A stretch of 64,000 nt of DNA, from NCBI GenBank assembly GCA_963758505.1, contig CAVWVJ010000002.1, forward strand, positions 3,237 to 67,236, written 5' to 3'. Positions 127-57,560 of the stretch are shown here, piece by piece. A program made the translations under genes and the position numbers. This DNA comes from an uncultured Acidobacteriaceae bacterium. Its GTDB lineage: Bacteria > Acidobacteriota > Terriglobia > Terriglobales > Acidobacteriaceae. Position 1 is the stretch's first letter. Every line of letters begins with the position of its first letter. The notes beneath the pieces were generated by a model, which saw only the letters and a list, made by a program, of their open reading frames with translations, was not told the origin of the DNA and made no database searches.

Positions 127-1636
127 ATGCTGGCTGCTCCAGTCATGGCGTCCCTGCGGGTCATCCTTCTTTGGCATCAACACCAGCCGTTTTACAAGGA
201 TCTGGTTACCGGCCAGTACCGTTTGCCCTGGGTGCGCCTGCACGCGCTGAAAGACTACTACGGGATGGTCAAACTGCTGGACGAATTCCCTAATGTTCAT
301 CAGAACTTCAATCTTGTGCCCTCTCTGATGGTTCAAATTCAGGATTATGTGGAAGGCACCGCCCAGGATCCATTCCTCAGCGTGGCAGCGAAGCCAGCAA
401 AAGATTTGACGGAAGAAGAGCGCCGCTTCGCACTCCGATATCTGTTTCAAGCAAATCCGCAGAACGTGATTGGCCGATATCCCCGATACCGAGAGTTGTG
501 GTACTATTTCGCGCTCACGAAAATAATCCGGAGCGAGCCGAGCGCTATTTTCAGGCGCAGGATTTTACTGATCTACAGGTCTTGTCGCAGCTTGCATGGT
601 TCGATGAATTCTTCCTGGAAGAGAAAGACATTGCTGCGCTGGTCACGAAGGGCCACTACTTTTCACTTGATGATCAAACAGCTGTGATCGCGCGGGAACG
701 AGAACTGTTGGGTCGCGTCCTGTGCCCATGCTGAGGCGGCGAAGAAAGGCTCGATCGAGATCTCGGCCACTCCGTTTTATCATCCGATCCTTCCGTTAAT
801 TTGCGATACGAACGCGGGGGCAGTGTCGTCCCCAGGATTGCCGTTACCGCAAAATCGATTTCGCCATCCGGAAGACGCTCGGGAACAGATCACGAAAGGC
901 CTCGATCTCCACGAACGGGTTTTCGGTATTCGGCCCAAAGGAATCTGGCCCTCGGAAGGCAGCGTCTCCGAGGAAGTGCTGGCCCTCGCGCATAGCGTGG
1001 GTGTGCAGTGGATGGCGACAGATGAAGGCGTACTCGGGCGCAGCGCCGGAATGTTCTTCGCACGGGACGGCAACGGCCGGTTGCCCTCGCACATGGCGGA
1101 CAAGCTCTACAACATCCATCGCTATGAAAACGGGCCGGCCACCATGAACCTGGTATTTCGGGATCACCAGATTTCGGATCTGATCGGCTTCGTCTATTCC
1201 GGCATGCCTCCAGCGGATGCGGCCCGTCACTTGATTAACAACATCAAAGAAGCTGCGCGGCCGGTGCTATCAAGGGGCAGGGACGCTGTCGTCTCAATCA
1301 TTCTCGATGGCGAGAACGCCTGGGAATACTATCCAAAATCCGGCCGGGAATTTCTGCGACGCTTTTATGACGTGCTGCAGCATGAACCGGGACTTGAAGC
1401 GGTGACAATTTCTGAGGCGATCGCCCGTCATAAAGATTTCAGCCCTATGTCATCACTCGTGCCAGGTTCGTGGATCAGCGCAAATTTCAACGTGTGGATC
1501 GGCGCTCCCGAAGACAATCGCGCGTGGGACTATTTGAATCACGCGCGCCAGTTTTACGAACTGAATGCACCGCGAGCAACGGAAGAGCAACGCAAGTTAG
1601 CATTCGACGAAATCTTGATCGCCGAGGGTAGCGATT
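127..1636 (+). pseudogene. Glycoside hydrolase family 57 (alpha-amylase/branching-enzyme-like), disrupted by two frame changes and 3' truncation
   Basis: N-terminus [24 protein letters not shown] is typical GH57. The homologous reading runs in frame 1 (127-~497), frame 3 (~498-~720, ..[17 protein letters not shown]..) and frame 1 again (~721-1636, ..EISATPFYHPILPLICD..). It ends at AEGSD|C, where GH57 proteins have AEGSDWFWWYG. Confidence 0.75.
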
Positions 1637-1915
1637 GTATATTGTTTAGATCCGTTAAATTTTCGGTGTGATCTCCTATCATATAAACCAGTGCTCTGTT
1701 ACGAGGTCTTTAAAAAATGGCCGCTTCTAAGCCTATTTCCTGATTGTATTTGGAGGCACATCCTTTATTTCACTTAACAATAATTTTGGAACCTTATTAA
1801 CTCTTGTTTAGGGCTGTTTCCCTTTAGACATACAACCTTAGCGTTCTATGTCCGATTATTTAATATTCATCTTAACCCTTTCGAGTGCAAATACTCTCCG
1901 ATAAAATCTTCACGA
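1637..1915 (-). rRNA. Fragment of an AT-rich LSU (23S-like) rRNA, domain II including the GTPase-associated centre (H42-44); not a functional rRNA gene
   Basis: The reverse complement contains GGGAAACAGCCC...GGCTTAGAAGCGGCCATTTTTTAAAGACCTCGTAACAGAGCACTGGT...AACGGATCTAAAC. This is collinear with E. coli 23S ~990-1230 (GGCUUAGAAGCAGCCAUCAUUUAAAGAAAGCGUAAUAGCUCACUGGU). Composition is strongly AT-rich compared with the flanks. Confidence 0.6.
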
Positions 1916-1916
1916 T

Positions 1917-2555
1917 CCCCACGGTAATGCGCAGCCGGAGGTGCTCGCACAGCTTGCAGGGGCTAAAGCCCAATTTTTTAGCAGACGATTTCGGCACGAC
2001 TGAAGTCGTGCCCTGATACGAGCTAGATGGGATGCGACGGACGATTCGGTACGACTGCAGTCGTGCCCCGATACAAGTGGCACCTGCACGAAGATTGATG
2101 TGGACGTAGGGGTCCTTCGACTACGAACGCTTTGCGTTCTTCGCTCAGGATGACAAAGTTGGGGATGCGCAGCCGGAGGTGCTCGCACAGATTGCAGGGG
2201 CTAAAGCCCAACTCTTCCGCAGACGATTTCGGCACGACTGAAGTCGTGCCCTGATACGAGTGGCACCTGCACGAAGATTGATGTGGACGTAGGGGTCCTT
2301 CGGCTTCGAACGCTGCGCGTTCTTCGCTCAGGATGACAAAGCTGGGGATGCGCAGCCGGAGGTGCTCGCACAGATTGCAGGGGCTAAAGCCCAACTCTTC
2401 CGCAGACGATTTCGGCACGACTGCAGTCGTGCCCTGATACAAGTGGCACCTGCACGAAGATTGATGTGGACGTAGGGGTCCTTCGACTACGAACGCTTTC
2501 GCGTTCTTCGCTCAGGATGACAGACCTGCGCTTCTTCGCTCAGGATGACAAGTAG
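1917..2555. repeat. Tandem composite intergenic repeat, three units starting at 1927, 2165 and 2348 (periods 238 and 183 bp), plus a partial fourth end
   Basis: Near-identical units. Each contains atgcgcagccggaggtgctcgcacag, aggggctaaagccc, the hairpin ggcacgactgaagtcgtgcc and ttcttcgctcaggatgaca. Confidence 0.9.
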
Positions 2556-4289
2556 CTAGTTGCGGACGCGGCGCTGGTGGGTGCTGGGAATGCGCATATC
2601 TTCGCGGTATTTCGCGACGGTGCGGCGGGTGACCTGGATTCCCTGCGACTGCAGGATGCGGGTGATCTGCTCGTCGGTCAGCGGACGGGCGGGATCTTCT
2701 TCTTCGATCAGCTTTTTCACGCGGCGCTTGAGGATGAGCAGCGAAGTGGCTCCGCCTTCGGGGCCGTTGACGCTTTCACTGAAGAAGTAACGCAGCTCGT
2801 ACACGCCTTGCGAGGTGTGGACGTATTTGTTGGCTACGGCGCGGCTGACGGTCGAGGGGTGGACGCCGATTTCCTCGGCGACCTCTTTGATCATCATCGG
2901 CTTGAGCTGGTCGATACCCTGGTCGAGGAAGTCGCGCTGGCGGTTGATGATCGAGTAGCAGACTTTCAAGATCGTCTGCTTGCGCTGCTCGATGTTCTTG
3001 ATGAGCTGGATCGCCGACTTGTAGCGCTCTTTGACGTAATTGCGAACGTCTTTTTCCGCGGCGTCGCGGTTCAGCAGACGTTTATAGCCGGGATTCACGC
3101 GAAGCTGCGGGATCTCTTCGTCGTTCATCACCACGATGTACTCGTCGCCCTGCTTGACGAAGGCCACATCGGGCTCGATGAGGCGGGTTTCCTGCTTGTT
3201 GTAGCGGAGACCCGGCTTGGGATCGAGGGTGCGGACGAAGTCGAGGGCGGCAGTGACGGCTTCGAGCGGACGGCCTAGCGCCTTCGCGATTTCCTTATAT
3301 TGTTTGTTCTGCAGCTCGCGCATGTGGTCGGTGACCATGTTGATGGCGTCATCGATGGCCTGGGCGATGTGTCCGTTGCCGTTCTTGTGCGGCATGGACT
3401 CGAAGTAGCGGAGCTGGATGAGGAGGCATTCGCGCAGGTCGCGGGCGGCGATGCCGATCGGGTCCAGGTTCTGGAGGATGTGAATGGCTTCCTGGAGAGC
3501 GTCGCGGCTGAAAGGGACGGCGGCGGGCGTTGTGCGCCGCGGAACCAGGCTCGGGCGCGGGGTTTCGATGGTCTGCACCTGAACGGGCGTATGCTCTTCC
3601 GCTTCCCGCTCGAGGCCGTCGGATGGCGTGTTGGTGGTTGCAAAGACCGCCATATCCAAAGCCGCAATCTGCTCATCGACATCGGAGGCGAGCACGAGGG
3701 CGGAATCAAGAACGTCTTTGGGGTCTGGATCGCTGGACAGTTCAACAGGCTCTTCCGAGACGATTCCGAGAAGTTCGTCGTCGCTCGCGGTCAGGTAGCC
3801 TTCGTCGTTCAGATTGCCGATGATGAGGTCGGCGGCAGCCGCGACATCGTCTTTCAGGTGCATCGAGCCAAGCTGCCACATGAGGTGGTCGGTCAGAGTG
3901 GTGGGCTTGGAGAGGAAATTCTCGAAGGAGGGGCGTTCGACGTCTTCGATTTCGCTGGTACTACGGTAGCCCGGGTCGAGATATTCCTGAAAAAACGAGC
4001 CAAAATCGATCTCTTCGAACGGGTCCTTGGCTTCCGGAGTAGCGGGTGTCTCTTCGGTGGCAACGGCGGAATCCCGCTCACGTTGCTCCTCTTTGGCCGA
4101 AACATCGTCCAGAAGGGGGACATTTTCGTCCAGTTCCTCCAGGACCGGGTTCTCAATCATCTCCTCATTGATCATCTCCTTGAGCTCCATCTTATTGAGC
4201 GCAAGGACGCTGACCATCTGAACCAGACCCGGCGTGAGGATCTGTTTCTGAGAGACCTTCAGATTGAGCTTTGGCTGGAGCAGCACCAT
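2556..4289 (-). CDS. rpoN: RNA polymerase sigma-54 factor
   Basis: N-terminal MVLLQPKLNLKVSQKQILTPGL..ENPVLEE (region I), HTH, and the C-terminal RpoN box RRTVAKYRE. Lies downstream of lptB as in many Gram-negatives. Start placed at the conserved MVLLQ rather than the ORF-maximal 4370. Confidence 0.9.
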   Translation of the reverse strand: MVLLQPKLNLKVSQKQILTPGLVQMVSVLALNKMELKEMINEEMIENPVLEELDENVPLLDDVSAKEEQRERDSAVATEETPATPEAKDPFEEIDFGSFFQEYLDPGYRSTSEIEDVERPSFENFLSKPTTLTDHLMWQLGSMHLKDDVAAAADLIIGNLNDEGYLTASDDELLGIVSEEPVELSSDPDPKDVLDSALVLASDVDEQIAALDMAVFATTNTPSDGLEREAEEHTPVQVQTIETPRPSLVPRRTTPAAVPFSRDALQEAIHILQNLDPIGIAARDLRECLLIQLRYFESMPHKNGNGHIAQAIDDAINMVTDHMRELQNKQYKEIAKALGRPLEAVTAALDFVRTLDPKPGLRYNKQETRLIEPDVAFVKQGDEYIVVMNDEEIPQLRVNPGYKRLLNRDAAEKDVRNYVKERYKSAIQLIKNIEQRKQTILKVCYSIINRQRDFLDQGIDQLKPMMIKEVAEEIGVHPSTVSRAVANKYVHTSQGVYELRYFFSESVNGPEGGATSLLILKRRVKKLIEEEDPARPLTDEQITRILQSQGIQVTRRTVAKYREDMRIPSTHQRRVRN

Positions 4290-4440: not shown

Positions 4441-5169
4441 TTAAACGAGGGTGAAACTTTCGCCGAGATAAACGCGCTTGACCTCGGGATCGCTGCCGAG
4501 TTCTTCGGGGGTGCCGGCGCGGAAGATGCGGCCTTCATTAATGATGTACGCGCGATCGGTGACAGAGAGGGTTTCGCGGACGTTGTGGTCGGTGATGAGC
4601 ACGCCGATGCCGCTGGCCTTGAGATCGAAGATGATCTTTTGAATATCGAGAACGGCAATGGGATCGATGCCGGAGAAGGGCTCGTCGAGGAGGATGAACG
4701 CCGGGGAGATGCAGAGACACCGGGCGATCTCGACACGGCGGCGTTCGCCACCGGAGAGTGAATAACCTTTGCTTTTGCGAATGTGCCCGAGACCGAGCTG
4801 GTCGATGAGGCGCTCCATGCGTTCGCGGCGCTCATGCCACGAGATCGGTTGTGCTTCGAGCACCGCCAGGATATTTTCTTCGACCGTGAGCTTGCGAAAT
4901 ACGGAGGGTTCCTGGGGCAGGTAGCTGATGCCGTAATTGCGCGCGCGGAGATACATCGGAACGTCGGTGATCTCTTTGTCGTCGATGACCACGCGGCCGG
5001 TATCGAGGGGGATGAGGCCCACGATCATGTAGAAGCTGGTAGTTTTGCCGGCGCCGTTGGGACCGAGGAGGCCGACGACCTCGCCCTGCTCCACATGGAT
5101 GTTGACGCCGTTCACCACACGTCGGCCGCGGTAGGTTTTCCCCAGTTCTTCAGCCGAAAGGATACTCAT
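4441..5169 (-). CDS. lptB: LPS export ABC transporter ATP-binding protein
   Basis: Walker [13 protein letters not shown] signature LSGGERRR, Walker B ILLDEPF. Synteny lptA/C-lptB-rpoN. Confidence 0.9.
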
Positions 5170-7442
5170 TATCTGCTTACTCTGGTGTGAGTTACGGTGG
5201 GGGCGGCGTTGGAGCCTTCCACCAGCACCCTATCATCCTTACTAAAGAAGGTCAACGTAGTGCCCCGTACCGTACCGTGTTCGGCGTCCGAGATGAGGGG
5301 TGCGCCGCCGGACAAAACGAATCGTCCGTCGTCCTGGTAATAAATCAGCTGGTCTCCGCTGCCACGACGCCCAGGTTGGGTGATGACAACATTGCCCTGG
5401 GCGATGATGCGATCCAGTTGACTCGGCGTGGGTTGGGGAGCCGTTGCGGTGCCGGATTGTTTCAAGTAGATGTCGAGGTGGTCGGCAGTAAGGACACCGT
5501 CGGCGGTGCGGGCGGTGACTCCGCCTTCGTAACGGGCGCGACGCTCGGCATCGACGTAGGTGAGCTTGCGCGCATGAACATTCACCGGCGTCACCTTGCC
5601 GTCCTTATCTTTTTGGACGAAGACGCTGGAGACCGGAGAAGCGGCTTGCGGGCTACCTTGCGCCACCAGGCTGCGGTTATCGCGATTGAACTCGATGGTT
5701 GGCGCTTGCACGATGTTGGCGCCCTGCCAGAGTCGCGAGCCACCGGTGTAGAGCGCGATGCCGGAATCCTCGTGGGCCACCATTTTCTTTGCGGTGACGT
5801 GGATCGGATCGCTGGAGGCCAGCATGGCGCCGCTGGGTTGCGCTTTTAGATCGCTGTAGGTGGATTTCACGTCGCCTTCAGCGACGGCTTCGCCGGTGTG
5901 GCGGTTGATGTGGATCACATTGGCGGTCATGCTCATGCCGGCTTCCGTAATGCGAGGCGAGCCGGTGAGGTGCAAGGTTTCGTCGGCGGGCGTGTAGTGT
6001 GCGATACGGGAATTGGCGGTCCGTTCGCCGCCCTTGGCGAGTTTCTCGCGATAGGTGAAGTTGCCTTCCTGCACCACGCTTTCCAGATTGCCTTCCGCGT
6101 TGTAGAAAACCTCGAGTTTGTCGCTGGTGGAGACTTTGTCATCCTGGCCCGCGGCGCGGGAAACCACCTTCGCATCGGGCAACGCCAAGATGTGCTGGAT
6201 ATGGCCTCCCTGGTTGAAGTCAGCAAAGAATCTGCCCGCGTTGACCACGGTCGAGGTAACGGATTGGCTGCCATTCGCGGGTTGATCGATCACGACATGA
6301 GCGGCGCCGCTGGTGTTTGCCTTGGAGGGAGTTTTCCCGTCGCGGACGTCGACGTCCAGAACGTCGGCAACGATCTCGGTGCGCTGCTGCTGGCTGGCCG
6401 GACCGGAGGCGGCAGGGTCCTGGATGACATGCGCGTTGTCGGCCAGGCGGATGGTGCGCGGCTGGGTATCGGGACCGAAATGAACAAAGATACGATCCGC
6501 GAAGCCGTGCATCGGGCGCTCCCCGCTGGAACGGAAGCGGGAGCCCTCGGAGAGGACTGCGAGTTGCAGATCGTTGGAGGCGCCGAATTGCAGATCGCCT
6601 TTCGCAGCCTGGACTTCGTAGCTACTGGCGCCATGGCTTGCCGCCTGCACGTGGCCATTGGCGAGAATCTGGCTGATGTTGTTATCGGGGCGGAACAGAA
6701 TCGTCACGACGTCAGAGACAATCGTGCTGTCGGGCTGGGTGACCCTTACGGATTCAAGCACCGCCTCGCGCGGCTCCTTGGTCACAACTCCGTGCCGCGC
6801 GACAAGGGTACGGGGAACGGGGCCGATGGTGGTGATATGAATGTCGGAATTGAGGGTAAGGCGATTGGTGTGCGAATCGTAGAGGACGCCGCGCGCCGTG
6901 CCATTGGCCTCGGGCACATGAAACTCGATCTGCTGGTCGGTTTGGGCAAGCCCCGTTTTCTGGTTAAAGACCAGACCGCTGGTCTTGAGATGAATAGGAT
7001 TTTTTAATTCGGAGGGCGCCGCCTGATCGGGACGATTGGGACCTTGCGTGTTGGCTTCCAGATCGAAATCGACCTCTCCTTTCGCGACTACGTTTCCGGT
7101 TTTGGCGTCATATTCAAAATCGGAACCATAGATCTGGTCGAAACGGGAAGCATCGCGTCCATAGACGATGATATTGACGTCTTCCAGCAGCGCTTTCCCC
7201 GTGTCTTTGTATTGCGTGGCCTTCTTAGCGCTGATTTTGAATAAAGTTCTGCCTCCCTCCGATTTAGAAAGCGAAAACCCTTCCGTGCTTTGCTGAATCT
7301 CGACTCCCAGTTTCTTCGCGACCATGTGCTGCATGATGCGGAACTGGTAACGGCGAACCAGGTAGAAGCCGCTGACGACGAGGAGCAGCGCCACCGCGAG
7401 CACGGCGAACCAGGTTCGAAGACGGGCAATGGAGAGGGACAT
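5169..7442 (-). CDS. Large membrane-anchored LptC/LptA (OstA)-like protein, 757 aa
   Basis: N-terminal TM helix followed by an LptC-like segment. The C-terminus has OstA-like beta-jellyroll motifs ([30 protein letters not shown]..). Start overlaps the lptB region by 1 nt. Confidence 0.6.
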
Positions 7443-8810: not shown

Positions 8811-8819
8811 GGTAGGCGA

Positions 8820-9488
8820 ATGAGAATTCTGATAGTGGAAGACGACGTGGCGCTAGCGAGGTTCATCGGCAAGGGCCTGGAAGAGGAGCACTACGCCATC
8901 GACATTGTGCACGACGGCGAGCAAGCGCGAACAATGGCATGCGAGAGCGACTACGACCTGGTAATTCTGGACCTCAATCTTCCGAAGCTGGATGGAATCA
9001 CCGTGTTGCAGCACTTGCGAGACCGTAAACGGTTACCGGTGCTCATCCTGACTGGAAGGACAAGGCTCGAAGAGAGGATCCGCGTGCTCGATGCCGGCGC
9101 TGACGATTACGTCTTGAAGCCATTCTCTTTCGCGGAACTCTCAGCCAGGGTGCGGGCATTACTGCGGCGTGGCGGATCGGCGCAGCAACTGAAGCTGCGC
9201 GTCGGCGACCTGGAACTGGACCGCGTGCAGAGAACCGTCGCGCGCGGCGGGAAGCGCATCGATCTGACTTCGAAAGAATTCGCCCTGCTGGAATACCTGA
9301 TGCGCAATGCCGGCAGGCGGGTGACGCGAACCATGATTATCGAGCATGTGTGGAACCTCAAGTTCGATACCGGCACCAACGTCGTGGACGTGTACGTGAA
9401 TAACTGACCACCAGAAGACGACCCTGACTCCCTGCGGGAGTTCCTGGAACGAGTTCGCAACGCCTATCGGCTGAATCTGCGATTTTGA
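8820..9488 (+). pseudogene. OmpR-family response regulator interrupted by a TGA at 9405-9407; remnant of the winged helix continues to 9488
   Basis: Intact REC domain (ILIVEDD, DLVILDLNLP, LKPF) and the start of the wHTH (FALLEYL..VDVYVNN*). After the stop, the same frame still reads DDPDSLREFLERVRNAYRL, resembling the ..TVRGVGYRL wing. Confidence 0.6.
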
Positions 9489-9499
9489 GGAGGAAATGC

Positions 9500-10861
9500 G
9501 TGACCGTCACGCTCAACACGACTTCGCTTTACAACGGCCAGGGCTTTGACGTGCAAAGCATGGTGAGCCAGATCATCGATTCCAAGCGCGGCCAGGAGAA
9601 CCAGTGGAAGGCGCAACAGACGACGTTGCAGAACCAGACTACCGCGCTCAATCAACTCGAAACGCAGATTGCAACGTTGTACACGGATTCGAACAATCTC
9701 ACCGATTTTACCGGTGTAATGGCTTCGAAGACGGCCAGTTCGTCGCAACCGGGAGTCGTGGTGGCGACCGCCACAAGTGCAGCAGCCAACGCTACCCACG
9801 TCCTCCAGGTGCAAAGCCTTGCTTCGACCGGCGCAGCCTATTCGACATCGATTGCCTCCGATGCCACGCTCGATACGGGATCCTTCACCATCAAGGTGGG
9901 AACCAACACCCAGACCCTCGACATCGGGACTACCAACAAGTCTCTCTCTGACATCGCCTCCGCCATTAACAACCTGCAGATGGGAGTGACTGCCAGCGTG
10001 CAAAGTGACGCCTCCGGCGACCGGCTGACAATTCTAAGCGACACGCAGGGAGCTGCCGGAAGCGTCGATGTCGAAGGAGGAACCGACCAGCTCTCGTTCA
10101 CCAACGTAGCCGGATCGGATGCGGTGGTAAATATCGATGGCGTTCCTTATCAGAACAGCACGAACACAATCTCCGGAGCGATTTCCGGAGTCACGCTCAA
10201 CCTGGCAAGCGCGGCGCCGAACACCGACGTTACTCTAAGCGTGTCTCCCGATGCGAGTTCGGTGGCCACCGCCTTGAATACCTTTGTCACCGACTATAAC
10301 GCGATCGTCACTTCGGTCAATGCGCAGTTTACCTACAGCGCTTCCACGAACTCGGCTGGTGTGCTCTCCGGGGACAGTTCTGTGCGCCTGGTGCAGGACG
10401 CACTGCTCTCTCTCACTTCGTTTTCCATGAGCGGCAACGGCAGCATCGACTCCCTGCAATCGATGGGAATCAGCATGAATGACGACGGCACGCTTGCCAT
10501 CGACAGCAGCTCGTTGAACACGGCGCTCACCAGCAACTTCTCCGACCTTGCTAACTTCTTCCAGTCGGGCACAGGCAGCTTCGGCGAGGCCCTGAGCACC
10601 ACGATGACTTCCCTTAACAATCCGATCGACGGGCCGCTGGCGCTGGACCTCAGCAGCATTCAGCAAACGAACCAGGACCTGACAAATAACATCAACGACT
10701 TCGAAGCCAATCTGGCGGTGCAGGAGCAACAACTCACAACCCAGTACAGCCAGATTAATGCTGAGTTGCAACAGTTGCCAATGTTGCAGAGCCAACTATC
10801 GCAGGAGCTGGGCAGCCTGGATCCTTACCTCAGCTCTTCCTCCGGTTCATCCTCTTCCTAG
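9500..10861 (+). CDS. fliD: Flagellar filament capping protein (hook-associated protein 2)
   Basis: N-terminal FDVQSMVSQIIDSKRGQEN..L.NQ..ALN.L and a C-terminal coiled-coil (QEQQLTTQYSQINAELQQL) are typical of FliD. GTG at 9500 follows GAGGAGG (9487-9493). Confidence 0.85.
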   Translation: MTVTLNTTSLYNGQGFDVQSMVSQIIDSKRGQENQWKAQQTTLQNQTTALNQLETQIATLYTDSNNLTDFTGVMASKTASSSQPGVVVATATSAAANATHVLQVQSLASTGAAYSTSIASDATLDTGSFTIKVGTNTQTLDIGTTNKSLSDIASAINNLQMGVTASVQSDASGDRLTILSDTQGAAGSVDVEGGTDQLSFTNVAGSDAVVNIDGVPYQNSTNTISGAISGVTLNLASAAPNTDVTLSVSPDASSVATALNTFVTDYNAIVTSVNAQFTYSASTNSAGVLSGDSSVRLVQDALLSLTSFSMSGNGSIDSLQSMGISMNDDGTLAIDSSSLNTALTSNFSDLANFFQSGTGSFGEALSTTMTSLNNPIDGPLALDLSSIQQTNQDLTNNINDFEANLAVQEQQLTTQYSQINAELQQLPMLQSQLSQELGSLDPYLSSSSGSSSS

Positions 10862-10863
10862 CC

Positions 10864-11328
10864 ATGACAAACGAAGCGAACTTTGCCTACCGTGAATCGG
10901 AAGCTCTCACGACCGACCCTATCGGGCTGGTGGTGGTTCTTTACGACATGTTGCTGAAAGACCTACACGAAGCGATTGCGGCGCTAGCAGGGGGCGACGT
11001 GGAGCGTCGCACACGGGCAATCGGCCACAGCTTGCTGGTGCTGCAGCAACTCCAGGGGACGCTGGATCGGGACAAAGGCGGCGTTGTGGCGGCCAATCTC
11101 GATCGCTTCTATAACTTCACGCGGGCGAAGCTGCTGGAGGGCCAGATCAAGGCATCCTCCGAGATCTTCGAACACCAGGTCATCTTCGTCGCGTCCATTC
11201 GCGATGCCTGGAAGCAAGTACGAGCGGAGCAGCAGGCCGGATCGCAGACAGTGTCGTTCCCAGAAGCCTCAGCCATCCCTACTCTTTCTGCGAATACATC
11301 GGCCACTCCCGCCGAATGGAGCGCCTGA
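10864..11328 (+). CDS. fliS: Flagellar export chaperone FliS
   Basis: LVVVLYDMLLKDL..A...G.......I.....VLQQLQGTLD...GG..A.NL..FY is the FliS four-helix signature. Lies immediately after fliD. Confidence 0.85.
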   Translation: MTNEANFAYRESEALTTDPIGLVVVLYDMLLKDLHEAIAALAGGDVERRTRAIGHSLLVLQQLQGTLDRDKGGVVAANLDRFYNFTRAKLLEGQIKASSEIFEHQVIFVASIRDAWKQVRAEQQAGSQTVSFPEASAIPTLSANTSATPAEWSA

Positions 11329-11329
11329 G

Positions 11330-11677
11330 ATGGAACTCGCCGAACGTTCCATTCGGGAAGCCGTCGAGATCATTGATGATTTTCTTGCACAGACTGCCAA
11401 CGGTAAATCGCAGATCGCCGGCGATACCTTCCGTGAACTCTCTCGTCGCATAGAGATTGCACGATCAGCTCGCAATCTGCATGTCGGAAGACCCGCAGCG
11501 GATTCGGCTTTCGCCGCCGTATGCGGAGACTATCGCCAAAAGCTGGAACTTCTGAGAGTGCGTCTCGGAGAGCTCGAAATCATTTTCAAGAACGAGCGCA
11601 GCCGGCTCCTCGAAGAACACGGACGAATCGCAAGCACTCGTGCGTGGCACGACCTACTCGGCACGACTCAGCGATAA
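11330..11677 (+). CDS. Hypothetical helical protein downstream of fliS (possible flagellar accessory/chaperone, by position only)
   Basis: ATG lies 2 nt after the fliS stop. 115 aa with a predicted all-helical composition. No recognisable motif. Confidence 0.45.
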   Translation: MELAERSIREAVEIIDDFLAQTANGKSQIAGDTFRELSRRIEIARSARNLHVGRPAADSAFAAVCGDYRQKLELLRVRLGELEIIFKNERSRLLEEHGRIASTRAWHDLLGTTQR

Positions 11678-22683: not shown

Positions 22684-22750
22684 TTGTATCAGGACACGAC
22701 TTTAGTCGTGCCGCCACGAGCACTCAAAATCGGGCTTTAGCCCCTGCAGG
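22684..22750. repeat. Intergenic repeat: hairpin module plus gggct(t)tagcccctgca module
   Basis: ttgtatcaggacacgactttagtcgtgcc ... gggctttagcccctgcagg. The same modules occur at 1917-2555, 44703-44935 and 56900-57280. Confidence 0.85.
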
Positions 22751-44702: not shown

Positions 44703-44935
44703 ACCGCCCCGCGGTCAGCCCCACAACTCGCTCCGTTCCACATCTCTCTCCTGTTGTCATCCAGAGGAGGGCGTCTGCCCGACGTAAGGATCTGCTGTTT
44801 CACCGCCCGCAGCAGAATTTCGTGAAGCCACGAATTCGCTCGGGAACGATAGTTTGTATCAGGCCACGACTTCAGTCGTGCCGCTCGTCGGCCCTGGAAA
44901 CAGGGCTTCAGCCCCTGCAAACCGCCCCGCGGTCA
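44703..44935. repeat. Composite intergenic repeat (all three modules)
   Basis: ccgccccgcggtcagccccacaactc.., ttgtcatccagaggag.., gtttgtatcaggccacgacttcagtcgtgcc, gggcttcagcccctgcaaa. Confidence 0.85.
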
Positions 44936-49570: not shown

Positions 49571-49735
49571 CTCTTGTCATCCTGAGCGAAGAACGCGAAG
49601 CGTTCGCAGTCGAAGGACCTCTACCGCCAGAAGACTGCCCCGCGTTCAGCCCACTTTGCTCTTACTCACTCCAACATTTCTCTTGTTGTCATCCAGAGGA
49701 GCGAAGCGACGTAGGGATCTGCTGTTCTGCTAGAG
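49566..49735. repeat. Two copies of the tgtcatcc(t/a)gag... repeat module
   Basis: cttgtcatcctgagcgaagaacgcgaagcgttcgcagtcgaaggacc and ttgttgtcatccagaggagcgaagcgacgtagggatctgctg. Confidence 0.8.
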
Positions 49736-56618: not shown

Positions 56619-57560
56619 ACTCTGCACTCCGTTGCTCTCTCTTGTCATCCAGAGGAGCGCAGCGACGTAGGGACCTGCTGTCCTGCCCCGCGGCCAGCCC
56701 ACAACTCTCTCCGCGCTCCATCGCTCTCTCTTGTCATCCAGAGGAGCGCAGCGACGTAGGGACCTGCTGTCCTGCCCCGCGGCCAGCCCACAACTCTCTC
56801 CGCACTCCATTGCTCTCTCTTGTCATCCAGAGGAGCGCAGCGACGTAGGGACCTGCTGTTCACGGCCCGCCGCGGAAGAGCACGACCTCACTCCTGCAAA
56901 ACCGAAAAGTTTGTATCAGGGCACGACTTCAGTCGTGCCGCTCGCCGCCCACAGAACCGGGCTTCAGCCCCTGCAAACAGCTCCGCGGCCAGCCCACAAC
57001 TCTCTCCGCACTCCATTGCTCTCTCTTGTCATCCAGAGGAGCGCAGCGACGTAGGGACCTGCTGTCCTGCTCCGCGGCCAGCCCACAAACTCTCTCCGCC
57101 CTCCGTTGCTCTCTCTTGTCATCCAGAGGAGCGCAGCGACGTAGGGACCTGCTGTTCACGGCGCGCTGCAGAAGAGCACGACCTCTCCTGTAAAACCGAA
57201 AAGTTTGTATCAGGGCACGACTTCAGTCGTGCCGCTCGTCGCCCACAGAACCGGGCTTCAGCCCCTGCAAACAGCCCCGCGGCCAGCCCACAACTCTCTC
57301 CGCCCTCCATTGCTCTCTCTTGTCATCCAGAGGAGCGCAGCGACGTAGGGACCTGCTGTCCTGCTCCGCGGCCAGCCCACAACTCTCTCCGCACTCCATT
57401 GCTCTCTCTTGTCATCCAGAGGAGCGCAGCAACGTAGGGACCTGCTCTCCTGCCCCGCGGCCAGCCCACAAACTCTCTCCGCACTCCATTGCTCTCTCTT
57501 GTCATCCAGAGGAGCGCAGCGACGTAGGGACCTGCTGTCCACGGCGCGCTGCAGAAAAGC
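56619..57560. repeat. Higher-order tandem array: 8 copies of an 89-90-bp unit (starts 56641, 56730, 56819, 57025, 57115, 57319, 57408, 57498), interrupted twice by a ~115-bp hairpin-containing module
   Basis: Unit: cttgtcatccagaggagcgcagcgacgtagggacctgctgtcctgccccgcggccagcccacaactctctccgcactccattgctctct. Inserts carry gtttgtatcagggcacgacttcagtcgtgcc and gggcttcagcccctgcaaacag. Confidence 0.95.

Follow-up and report, generated by a model that had tools for sequence, protein, structure and literature searches.

A fungal-type mitochondrial rRNA fragment between two acidobacterial segments of a metagenomic contig

The stretch of acidobacterial DNA analysed here (64 kb, referred to as the window) carries close to its left end a short AT-rich block that resembles large subunit (LSU) rRNA and that begins just where a gene for a GH57 glycoside hydrolase breaks off. 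What is this block, which organism did it come from, and was it joined to its two neighbours inside a living cell or outside of it? The features that are needed to follow the argument are the following, with all positions given in window coordinates:

127 to 1636, plus strand: GH57 glycoside hydrolase gene, 5' two-thirds, cut after ...AEGSD (open reading frames, Pfam PF03065, orthologue alignment)
1636 to 1637, no strand: left junction from GH57 to the mitochondrial fragment, at most 1 nt shared (G1637) (base-level alignment to contig L163 and to host orthologues)
1637 to 1920, minus strand: fungal-type mitochondrial LSU rRNA, internal fragment of 284 nt from domain II with a short H38 (RF02541 and alignment to L163)
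1687 to 1733, minus strand: GTPase-associated centre (GAC), H43-H44, the L11/thiostrepton-binding region (cmscan alignment, model positions ~1100-1150)
1811 to 1822, minus strand: conserved GGGAAACAGCCC hairpin of LSU domain II (cmscan alignment and sequence)
1921 to 1926, no strand: ACGGTA, six bases that match neither L163 nor the repeat unit (alignment and repeat search)
1927 to 2556, no strand: tandem array, ~3.4 copies of a 183-nt unit with palindromic REP-like sub-elements (repeat search)
2556 to 4289, minus strand: rpoN (sigma-54), intact (Pfam; 100% identical to P0001; syntenic with L202, L203 and L206)
4441 to 5169, minus strand: lptB (open reading frame and Pfam)
5169 to 7442, minus strand: lptC/lptD_N, a protein of 757 amino acids (open reading frame and Pfam)

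Identity and source of the rRNA fragment

When the whole 64-kb window was scanned with cmscan, the bacterial LSU rRNA model (LSU_rRNA_bacteria, RF02541; clan CL00112) matched the minus strand at 1568-1911 with 103.2 bits (E=1.5e-29; the gathering threshold is 50 bits) and spanned model positions 861-1230; a rerun on the sub-region gave 94.7 bits for the same model. The first-pass annotation, made from the sequence without database searches, had proposed an Infernal search of Rfam as a check of its reading as an LSU rRNA fragment with the L11/thiostrepton region, and this significant match bears the reading out. RF02541 was the sole Rfam match above its gathering score in the window, in agreement with the earlier claim that no other part of an rRNA operon is present: of a complete LSU gene of ~2.9 kb within an rRNA operon, the 64 kb hold model positions ~861-1190 alone, and cmscan found no further rRNA match. 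The part of the alignment from 1568 to 1636 was rejected as rRNA, as it is a spurious extension into the GH57 coding sequence.

The limits of the block (1637-1920) were set by base-level alignment to the mitochondrial contig L163 and by 95 metagenome matches that share one query start; BLAST of the region against metagenome contigs gave sharp common boundaries equivalent to these two positions. The block had initially been taken to end at 1915; it does adjoin the host-type repeats closely, as was then noticed, and ends at 1920, seven positions before the first repeat unit. Both ends fall at arbitrary points within domain II helices, and the fragment covers roughly helices H37-H44. All three motifs recognised at first sight are present on the minus strand and in the right order, with coordinates that needed slight correction: the GAC string spans 1687-1733 and not 1687-1745, the GGGAAACAGCCC motif lies at 1811-1822 and not 1811-1823, and the AACGGATCTAAAC motif is found at 1644-1656 and not 1650-1670. 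In the cmscan alignment, the A-site-finger helix H38 is shortened from ~93 to 27 nt, and H44 holds a compensatory exchange of a G-C for a U-A pair, so that the helix is kept. The ordered motifs, the reduced H38 and the compensatory pair in H44 together indicate that the sequence derives from a working but divergent rRNA. With 35.5% GC in a window of 58.4% GC, the fragment forms the one strong AT island within the 64 kb, as had been noted for an AT-rich block in a GC-rich genome.

The fragment is 97.9% identical to positions 12646-12929 of L163 over the full 284 nt, with six mismatches and no indels. L163 is a soil-metagenome contig (Ga0209805_1000257) of 32 kb and 25% GC that carries a near-full LSU rRNA (641 bits), a tRNA-Cys and, all on one strand, open reading frames for nad4, nad2, cox3, cox2, nad1, nad5, cob and nad3, followed by rnl. 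These reading frames are fragmented under translation table 11 and continuous under table 4 (TGA=Trp), which gives a Nad5 of 667 amino acids. This Nad5 scores 536 bits against chain 7zm7_5 of 7ZM7, confirmed to be complex I of Chaetomium thermophilum, versus ~290 bits against plant chains and 269 bits against 6gcs, which is presumably from Yarrowia; Nad5 homologues sit on contigs of ~25-33 kb. Since the Nad5 of L163 is closest to that of Chaetomium thermophilum, the donor is a mitochondrion of the filamentous-ascomycete type, and judged by its sequence the fragment is of fungal (Pezizomycotina)-type mitochondrial rnl. The foreign source first suspected was thus correct in being organellar and not in the alternative of an AT-rich bacterial symbiont.

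All six differences from L163 are at positions that vary among 28 mitochondrial homologues, and for five of the six the base found in the window occurs in other homologues; measured against these homologues, no decay of the rRNA piece after insertion was found. The differences are natural variation of the donor, and the insert is 'fresh'. A 28-mer from the mitochondrial GAC, AGGCTTAGAAGCGGCCATTTTTTAAAGA, is common to >120 metagenome contigs (L081-L200), whose identity to the fragment across its 284 nt is only 80-98%, and might be used as a convenient marker of such mitochondrial LSU rRNAs.

The two flanks and their junctions

To the left of the fragment, the GH57 gene lies in three frame pieces (open reading frames 127-687, 498-734 and 823-1671), the first and third of which match PF03065; alignment with six orthologues shows that one base is deleted near 506 (-1) and two are deleted near 722 (-2). 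The -1 frameshift is situated in a locally AT-enriched stretch (window 495-535: TACTA-TTTCGCGCTCACGAAAATAATCC versus the consensus GAGCGCTTTCGCGAGCACGGCGACCATCC) that is also variable among GH57 orthologues. Nucleotide identity to the eight closest orthologous loci is 77-78% and for all eight the homology stops at exactly 1637, which confirms that the block starts where GH57 homology ends after AEGSD. In intact genes, ...AEGSD is followed by WNWWYGPEHH... and altogether ~290 more residues (the intact orthologue in L060 is an open reading frame of 811 amino acids), and in 43 of the 80 relatives the next gene encodes an enolase.

The GH57 sequence itself has no signature of an old pseudogene: the 271-amino-acid piece has two unique replacements, both conservative, at 93 invariant positions, where intact orthologues have between none and four. 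This absence of amino-acid decay indicates that selection acted on the gene until a very short time ago, or continues to act on it in its true genome. The GC content at third codon positions (GC3) is 0.05-0.13 lower in both GH57 pieces than in all eight orthologues; within the window, the absolute GC3 of GH57 deviates by only z = -1.4 to -1.7. A GC3 deficit without amino-acid decay suggests that the gene evolved in a genome with a lower GC content.

To the right, the tandem array is, from the distribution of its sequence elements, native to the right-hand genome. Its REP-like sub-elements (e.g. GGCACGACTGAAGTCGTGCC and GAACGCTTTGCGTTC) recur singly at 22686-22748, 44856-44920, 49574-49624, 56913-56976 and 57207-57270, and the same elements are found downstream of an identical rpoN in L201, an independent short-read contig of 2.5 kb that is 99.2% identical across rpoN and lptB; they were not found in the rpoN-clade relatives L202-L208. 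L201 ends at the equivalent of window position 1965, inside the array and 45 nt before the mitochondrial junction: a short-read assembly that breaks inside the array marks it as a difficult spot for assembly. L201 holds ~1.4 repeat units versus ~3.4 in the window, which could be copy-number variation or short-read collapse. The leftmost unit of the window reads AATTTTTTAGC at 1965-1985, where L201 and the other units read AACTCTTCCGC, a difference of three C-to-T changes and one C-to-A change in 7 nt, 40-50 nt from the mitochondrial junction; this could be variation between units, damage, or error near a fragment end. The primary metagenome of GCA_019702715.1 contains both the 99.2% identical strain (L201) and, on a 104-kb contig (L207), a relative with an RpoN of 88% identity, and the RpoN of the latter is also present in Logan SRR11310430.

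The right-hand sequence is of good quality. Differences between the window and L201 within coding sequence are at codon position 3 in 13 of 13 cases and the three indels are all non-coding, five genes are intact over 6.8 kb of synteny with L202 and L203, and adjacent pairs of open reading frames elsewhere in the window are ordinary separate genes. With the right-hand 62 kb being accurate, two frameshifts within the 1.5 kb of GH57 do not reflect a general error rate. Nucleotide identity of the right side to its nearest relatives is 78-79%, and the GC3 of its genes differs from that of their orthologues by -0.06 to +0.07. A 1.7-kb block with fliD, which would split a response regulator, was considered as another foreign insertion and rejected: the window has an intact order of response regulator, complete fliD and fliS-like gene (8811-11400), the Trans_reg_C domain of its response regulator is short by nature, with 51 of 77 profile positions, and it is L202 that has a clean deletion of 1699 nt (at 4743-5438) fusing the end of the regulator to the 3' part of fliS.

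Do the two flanks belong next to each other? Among 80 GH57 loci, rpoN and lptB are never found within 10 kb of GH57, and the two flanks are non-adjacent in these 80 loci as well as in five rpoN-clade loci; downstream of rpoN, the rpoN-clade relatives have an amine-oxidase gene in convergent orientation and LMF1 genes. The rRNA block is absent from all of these GH57 and rpoN-clade loci. As the loci of the flanks are not neighbours in any relative examined, the fragment sits at a join between separate loci. The first-pass annotation had the fragment replace the 3' end of GH57: the gene is indeed cut at this point, but this is not a simple replacement in situ, given the origin of the flanks from loci that are non-adjacent in every relative. 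The C-terminus of GH57, glgB, the enolase, the amine oxidase and LMF1 are all missing from the window, and on these grounds an inversion or translocation within the window was rejected.

The mitochondrial piece is clearly from a different organism than the flanks; whether the flanks come from one genome or two is a more delicate question. The window falls into a GH57 clade with 83-88% mutual identity and into an RpoN clade with 84-89%. Several members of the GH57 clade are metagenome-assembled genomes (MAGs) labelled Ca. Sulfotelmatobacter, with 83-85% identity to the GH57 piece. The MAG SMAG_U4889, labelled Ca. Korobacter, matches the right side of the window with its RpoN (85%), methyltransferase (84%) and bactofilin (73%), while its GH57, which is on the same contig as its methyltransferase, is only 59-66% identical to that of the window. 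This hints at different lineages for the left and right pieces, on the basis of this one MAG; a search for further links between the GH57 and RpoN clades via shared genes, cluster members or REP elements returned none that was usable beyond SMAG_U4889. The GH57 of SMAG_U4889 is an isolated lineage with 64-68% identity to everything, and its rpoN is without the usual upstream context of lptC-lptB (contigs L044, DASYAU010000172.1, and L205, DASYAU010000075.1); this could reflect a composite bin or a rearranged genome. Taken together, the shift in GC3 and the discordance of SMAG_U4889 suggest different genomes for left and right, whereas the clade identities are compatible with a single one.

The junctions are blunt on both sides. 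On the left, the host sequence runs to ...AGC GAT TG and the mitochondrial sequence starts from G1637; on the right, the homology to the mitochondrial sequence breaks off sharply after C1920, and the six bases ACGGTA that follow are either filler or a remnant of the native flank. Adapter remnants (ONT, PacBio and Illumina) were searched for at both junctions and at the start of the window, and no match exceeded those of shuffled controls. Blunt direct joins exclude a misjoin by k-mer overlap, and direct joins without adapter exclude simple concatenated reads that were left unsplit, so that a physically ligated molecule of three pieces is needed. Such junctions fit ligation of fragments in vitro as well as end-joining in vivo.

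Joined outside the cell or inside

We consider it probable, with some reservation, that three unrelated pieces of the soil DNA pool were joined outside the cell, be it in a chimeric molecule, a read or the assembly. Of the two explanations raised at the outset by the first-pass annotation, an assembly chimera and a genuine relic of foreign rDNA, the new evidence leans towards the chimera, and we infer a join in vitro or in silico rather than in a cell. The 284-nt fragment is a non-functional, blunt-ended spacer between acidobacterial segments that do not belong together, namely the 1.6-kb GH57 piece and rpoN-lptB with the array. While the library was being prepared, fragments from an acidobacterium A, from abundant fungal mitochondrial DNA (mtDNA) and from an acidobacterium B may have ended up in a single molecule or read; the assembler may then have used this chimeric molecule to extend or bridge a contig at the tandem-repeat array, where the true path is hard to follow. 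Misassembled contigs that result from single chimeric long reads are documented, and their breakpoints show no sequence bias (PMC7500977).

A chimera is favoured by the origin of the flanks from non-adjacent loci with the native neighbours of both missing, by the break in quality between the left 1.5 kb with its two frameshifting deletions and the accurate right side, by the break in composition at the junction, with a low GC3 of GH57 without decay, by the freshness of the insert, by the abundance of the donor template in soil DNA (as seen from the many metagenome contigs that share the 28-mer of the fragment), by the location of the join at a repeat array in which the independent assembly L201 also breaks and, as a hint, by the lineage discordance of SMAG_U4889. 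On the other side, ligated three-piece molecules should be rare and usually be out-voted by true reads, a truncated and frameshifted gene also looks like a real disrupted gene, and the arguments from lineage and composition come from one MAG and from a GH57 whose absolute GC3 is low by only z = -1.4 to -1.7.

The rarity of a three-piece ligation product that survives assembly is at the same time an argument for the main alternative, a capture of the fragment in vivo, which we regard as possible but rather unlikely. Breaks in GH57 and in the palindrome-rich array, arising during an inversion or translocation, would have been sealed by end-joining of the Ku/LigD type with a 284-bp filler of fungal mtDNA, and the truncated GH57 would then have begun to decay; the outcome would correspond to a NUMT, but in a bacterium. 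In its full form, a free-living soil acidobacterium with 284 bp of fungal mitochondrial rDNA as filler at the end-joining junction of a chromosomal rearrangement, the proposal is doubtful. Much of the sequence agrees with it: blunt junctions with 0-1 nt of microhomology and no adapters are expected for non-homologous end-joining (NHEJ), GH57 is both truncated and twice frameshifted, the palindrome-rich array at the right junction could be a fragile site, and the geometry fits a single inversion, with the 5' part of GH57 pointing towards rpoN. The nucleotide identity to the nearest relatives is also alike on both sides (77-78% and 78-79%), making one genome possible, and the window does not stand out in either the GH57 or the RpoN clade. 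The literature adds further support: in Sinorhizobium, experiments showed that NHEJ can place heterologous DNA in a broken chromosome (PMC6379672), Acidobacteria as a phylum are enriched in conventional NHEJ (PMC7719229), and the fixation of a useless piece of eukaryotic DNA in bacteria has a precedent in the 685-bp piece of human L1 that is present in 11% of Neisseria gonorrhoeae strains (PMC3042738, PMC3087451).

Several points weigh against such a capture. No second assembly or strain shows the junction, with L201 stopping 45 nt short of it; the open reading frame across the junction had no 100% match in a search of records from which those of the source appear to be masked. A large rearrangement would have to coincide with the capture of foreign DNA, the enolase would be lost in a simple deletion, and uptake of double-stranded DNA from fungi by this organism would have to be assumed. 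The low GC3 of GH57, with no decay at the amino-acid level, argues for a different genome, as does the discordance of SMAG_U4889, and two frameshifts without an excess of substitutions are odd for real decay. We know of no case of fungal mtDNA in a bacterial chromosome.

Far less probable is a function of the rRNA piece as a decoy, a regulator or a fragmented rRNA gene, for example as a GAC mimic that binds L10/L11. The secondary structure of the rRNA is kept, including the compensatory pair in H44; however, with 97.9% identity to a fungal mitochondrial gene this structure is inherited and not selected here. Moreover, the ends are arbitrary and inside domain II helices, and none of the 80 GH57 loci or of the rpoN-clade loci contains the block. 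There are no genes for ribosomal proteins and no other parts of rRNA nearby: a mimic of a ribosomal protein leader would be positioned upstream of rplK/rplA/rplJ and conserved in relatives, and neither was found. A functional role is effectively excluded.

So is, at a probability close to nil, the idea that the block is left over from the rDNA of an AT-rich bacterial endosymbiont or is a native 23S rRNA pseudogene in decay: the bacterial LSU model does score best in Rfam, but of the models in the LSU clan only the top one is retained there, and a match to the bacterial model is what one expects for mitochondrial LSU rRNA, H38 is shortened to 27 nt, and the nearest full-length relative is on a contig of 25% GC with nad, cox and cob genes that use TGA for Trp and with a Chaetomium-like Nad5.

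Significance and comparison with known systems

If the join is an artefact, as we think probable, the window offers a clean and well-characterised case of three pieces joined into a chimera within a long metagenomic contig, and one that passes the ordinary checks: it has no Ns, no adapters and no k-mer overlap. In MAG catalogues, chimeric joins of this kind can give rise to spurious pseudogenes, synteny and eukaryote-to-bacterium transfers, and short organellar rRNA matches in bacterial contigs could be a cheap screen for them. A real join would show directly, and in nature, that bacteria can take up eukaryotic DNA from their environment by end-joining with no need of homology, which has so far been seen in the laboratory only or been argued from genome statistics.

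The fragment resembles rnl of the fungal (Pezizomycotina) type in its 97.9% identity over 284 nt, its shortened H38 and its conserved GAC; it differs in representing only ~10% of the gene, with no mitochondrial sequence flanking it. The likeness to NUMTs and to filler captured by NHEJ consists of a short, non-functional foreign fragment with a blunt or 1-nt junction that is associated with a rearrangement, here in a phylum enriched in Ku/LigD (PMC7719229). NUMTs, however, arise within one cell, whereas the donor here is the organelle of another organism, and in the capture described for S. meliloti, electroporated DNA was inserted at an engineered I-SceI break (PMC6379672). The L1 fragment of Neisseria gonorrhoeae (nL1) is likewise a non-coding eukaryotic fragment in a bacterial chromosome, with 98-100% identity to its donor (PMC3042738, PMC3087451); PCR and sequencing verified it in numerous isolates of a pathogen with natural competence, while the join described here is on a single metagenomic contig. 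The chimeric contigs known, for example, from Canu and Flye misassemblies resemble the window in their unrelated segments, in breakpoints with no signature, in a repeat at the join and in a change in integrity across it (PMC7500977); they differ in that the window would need two joins 284 nt apart in one molecule, with no adapter.
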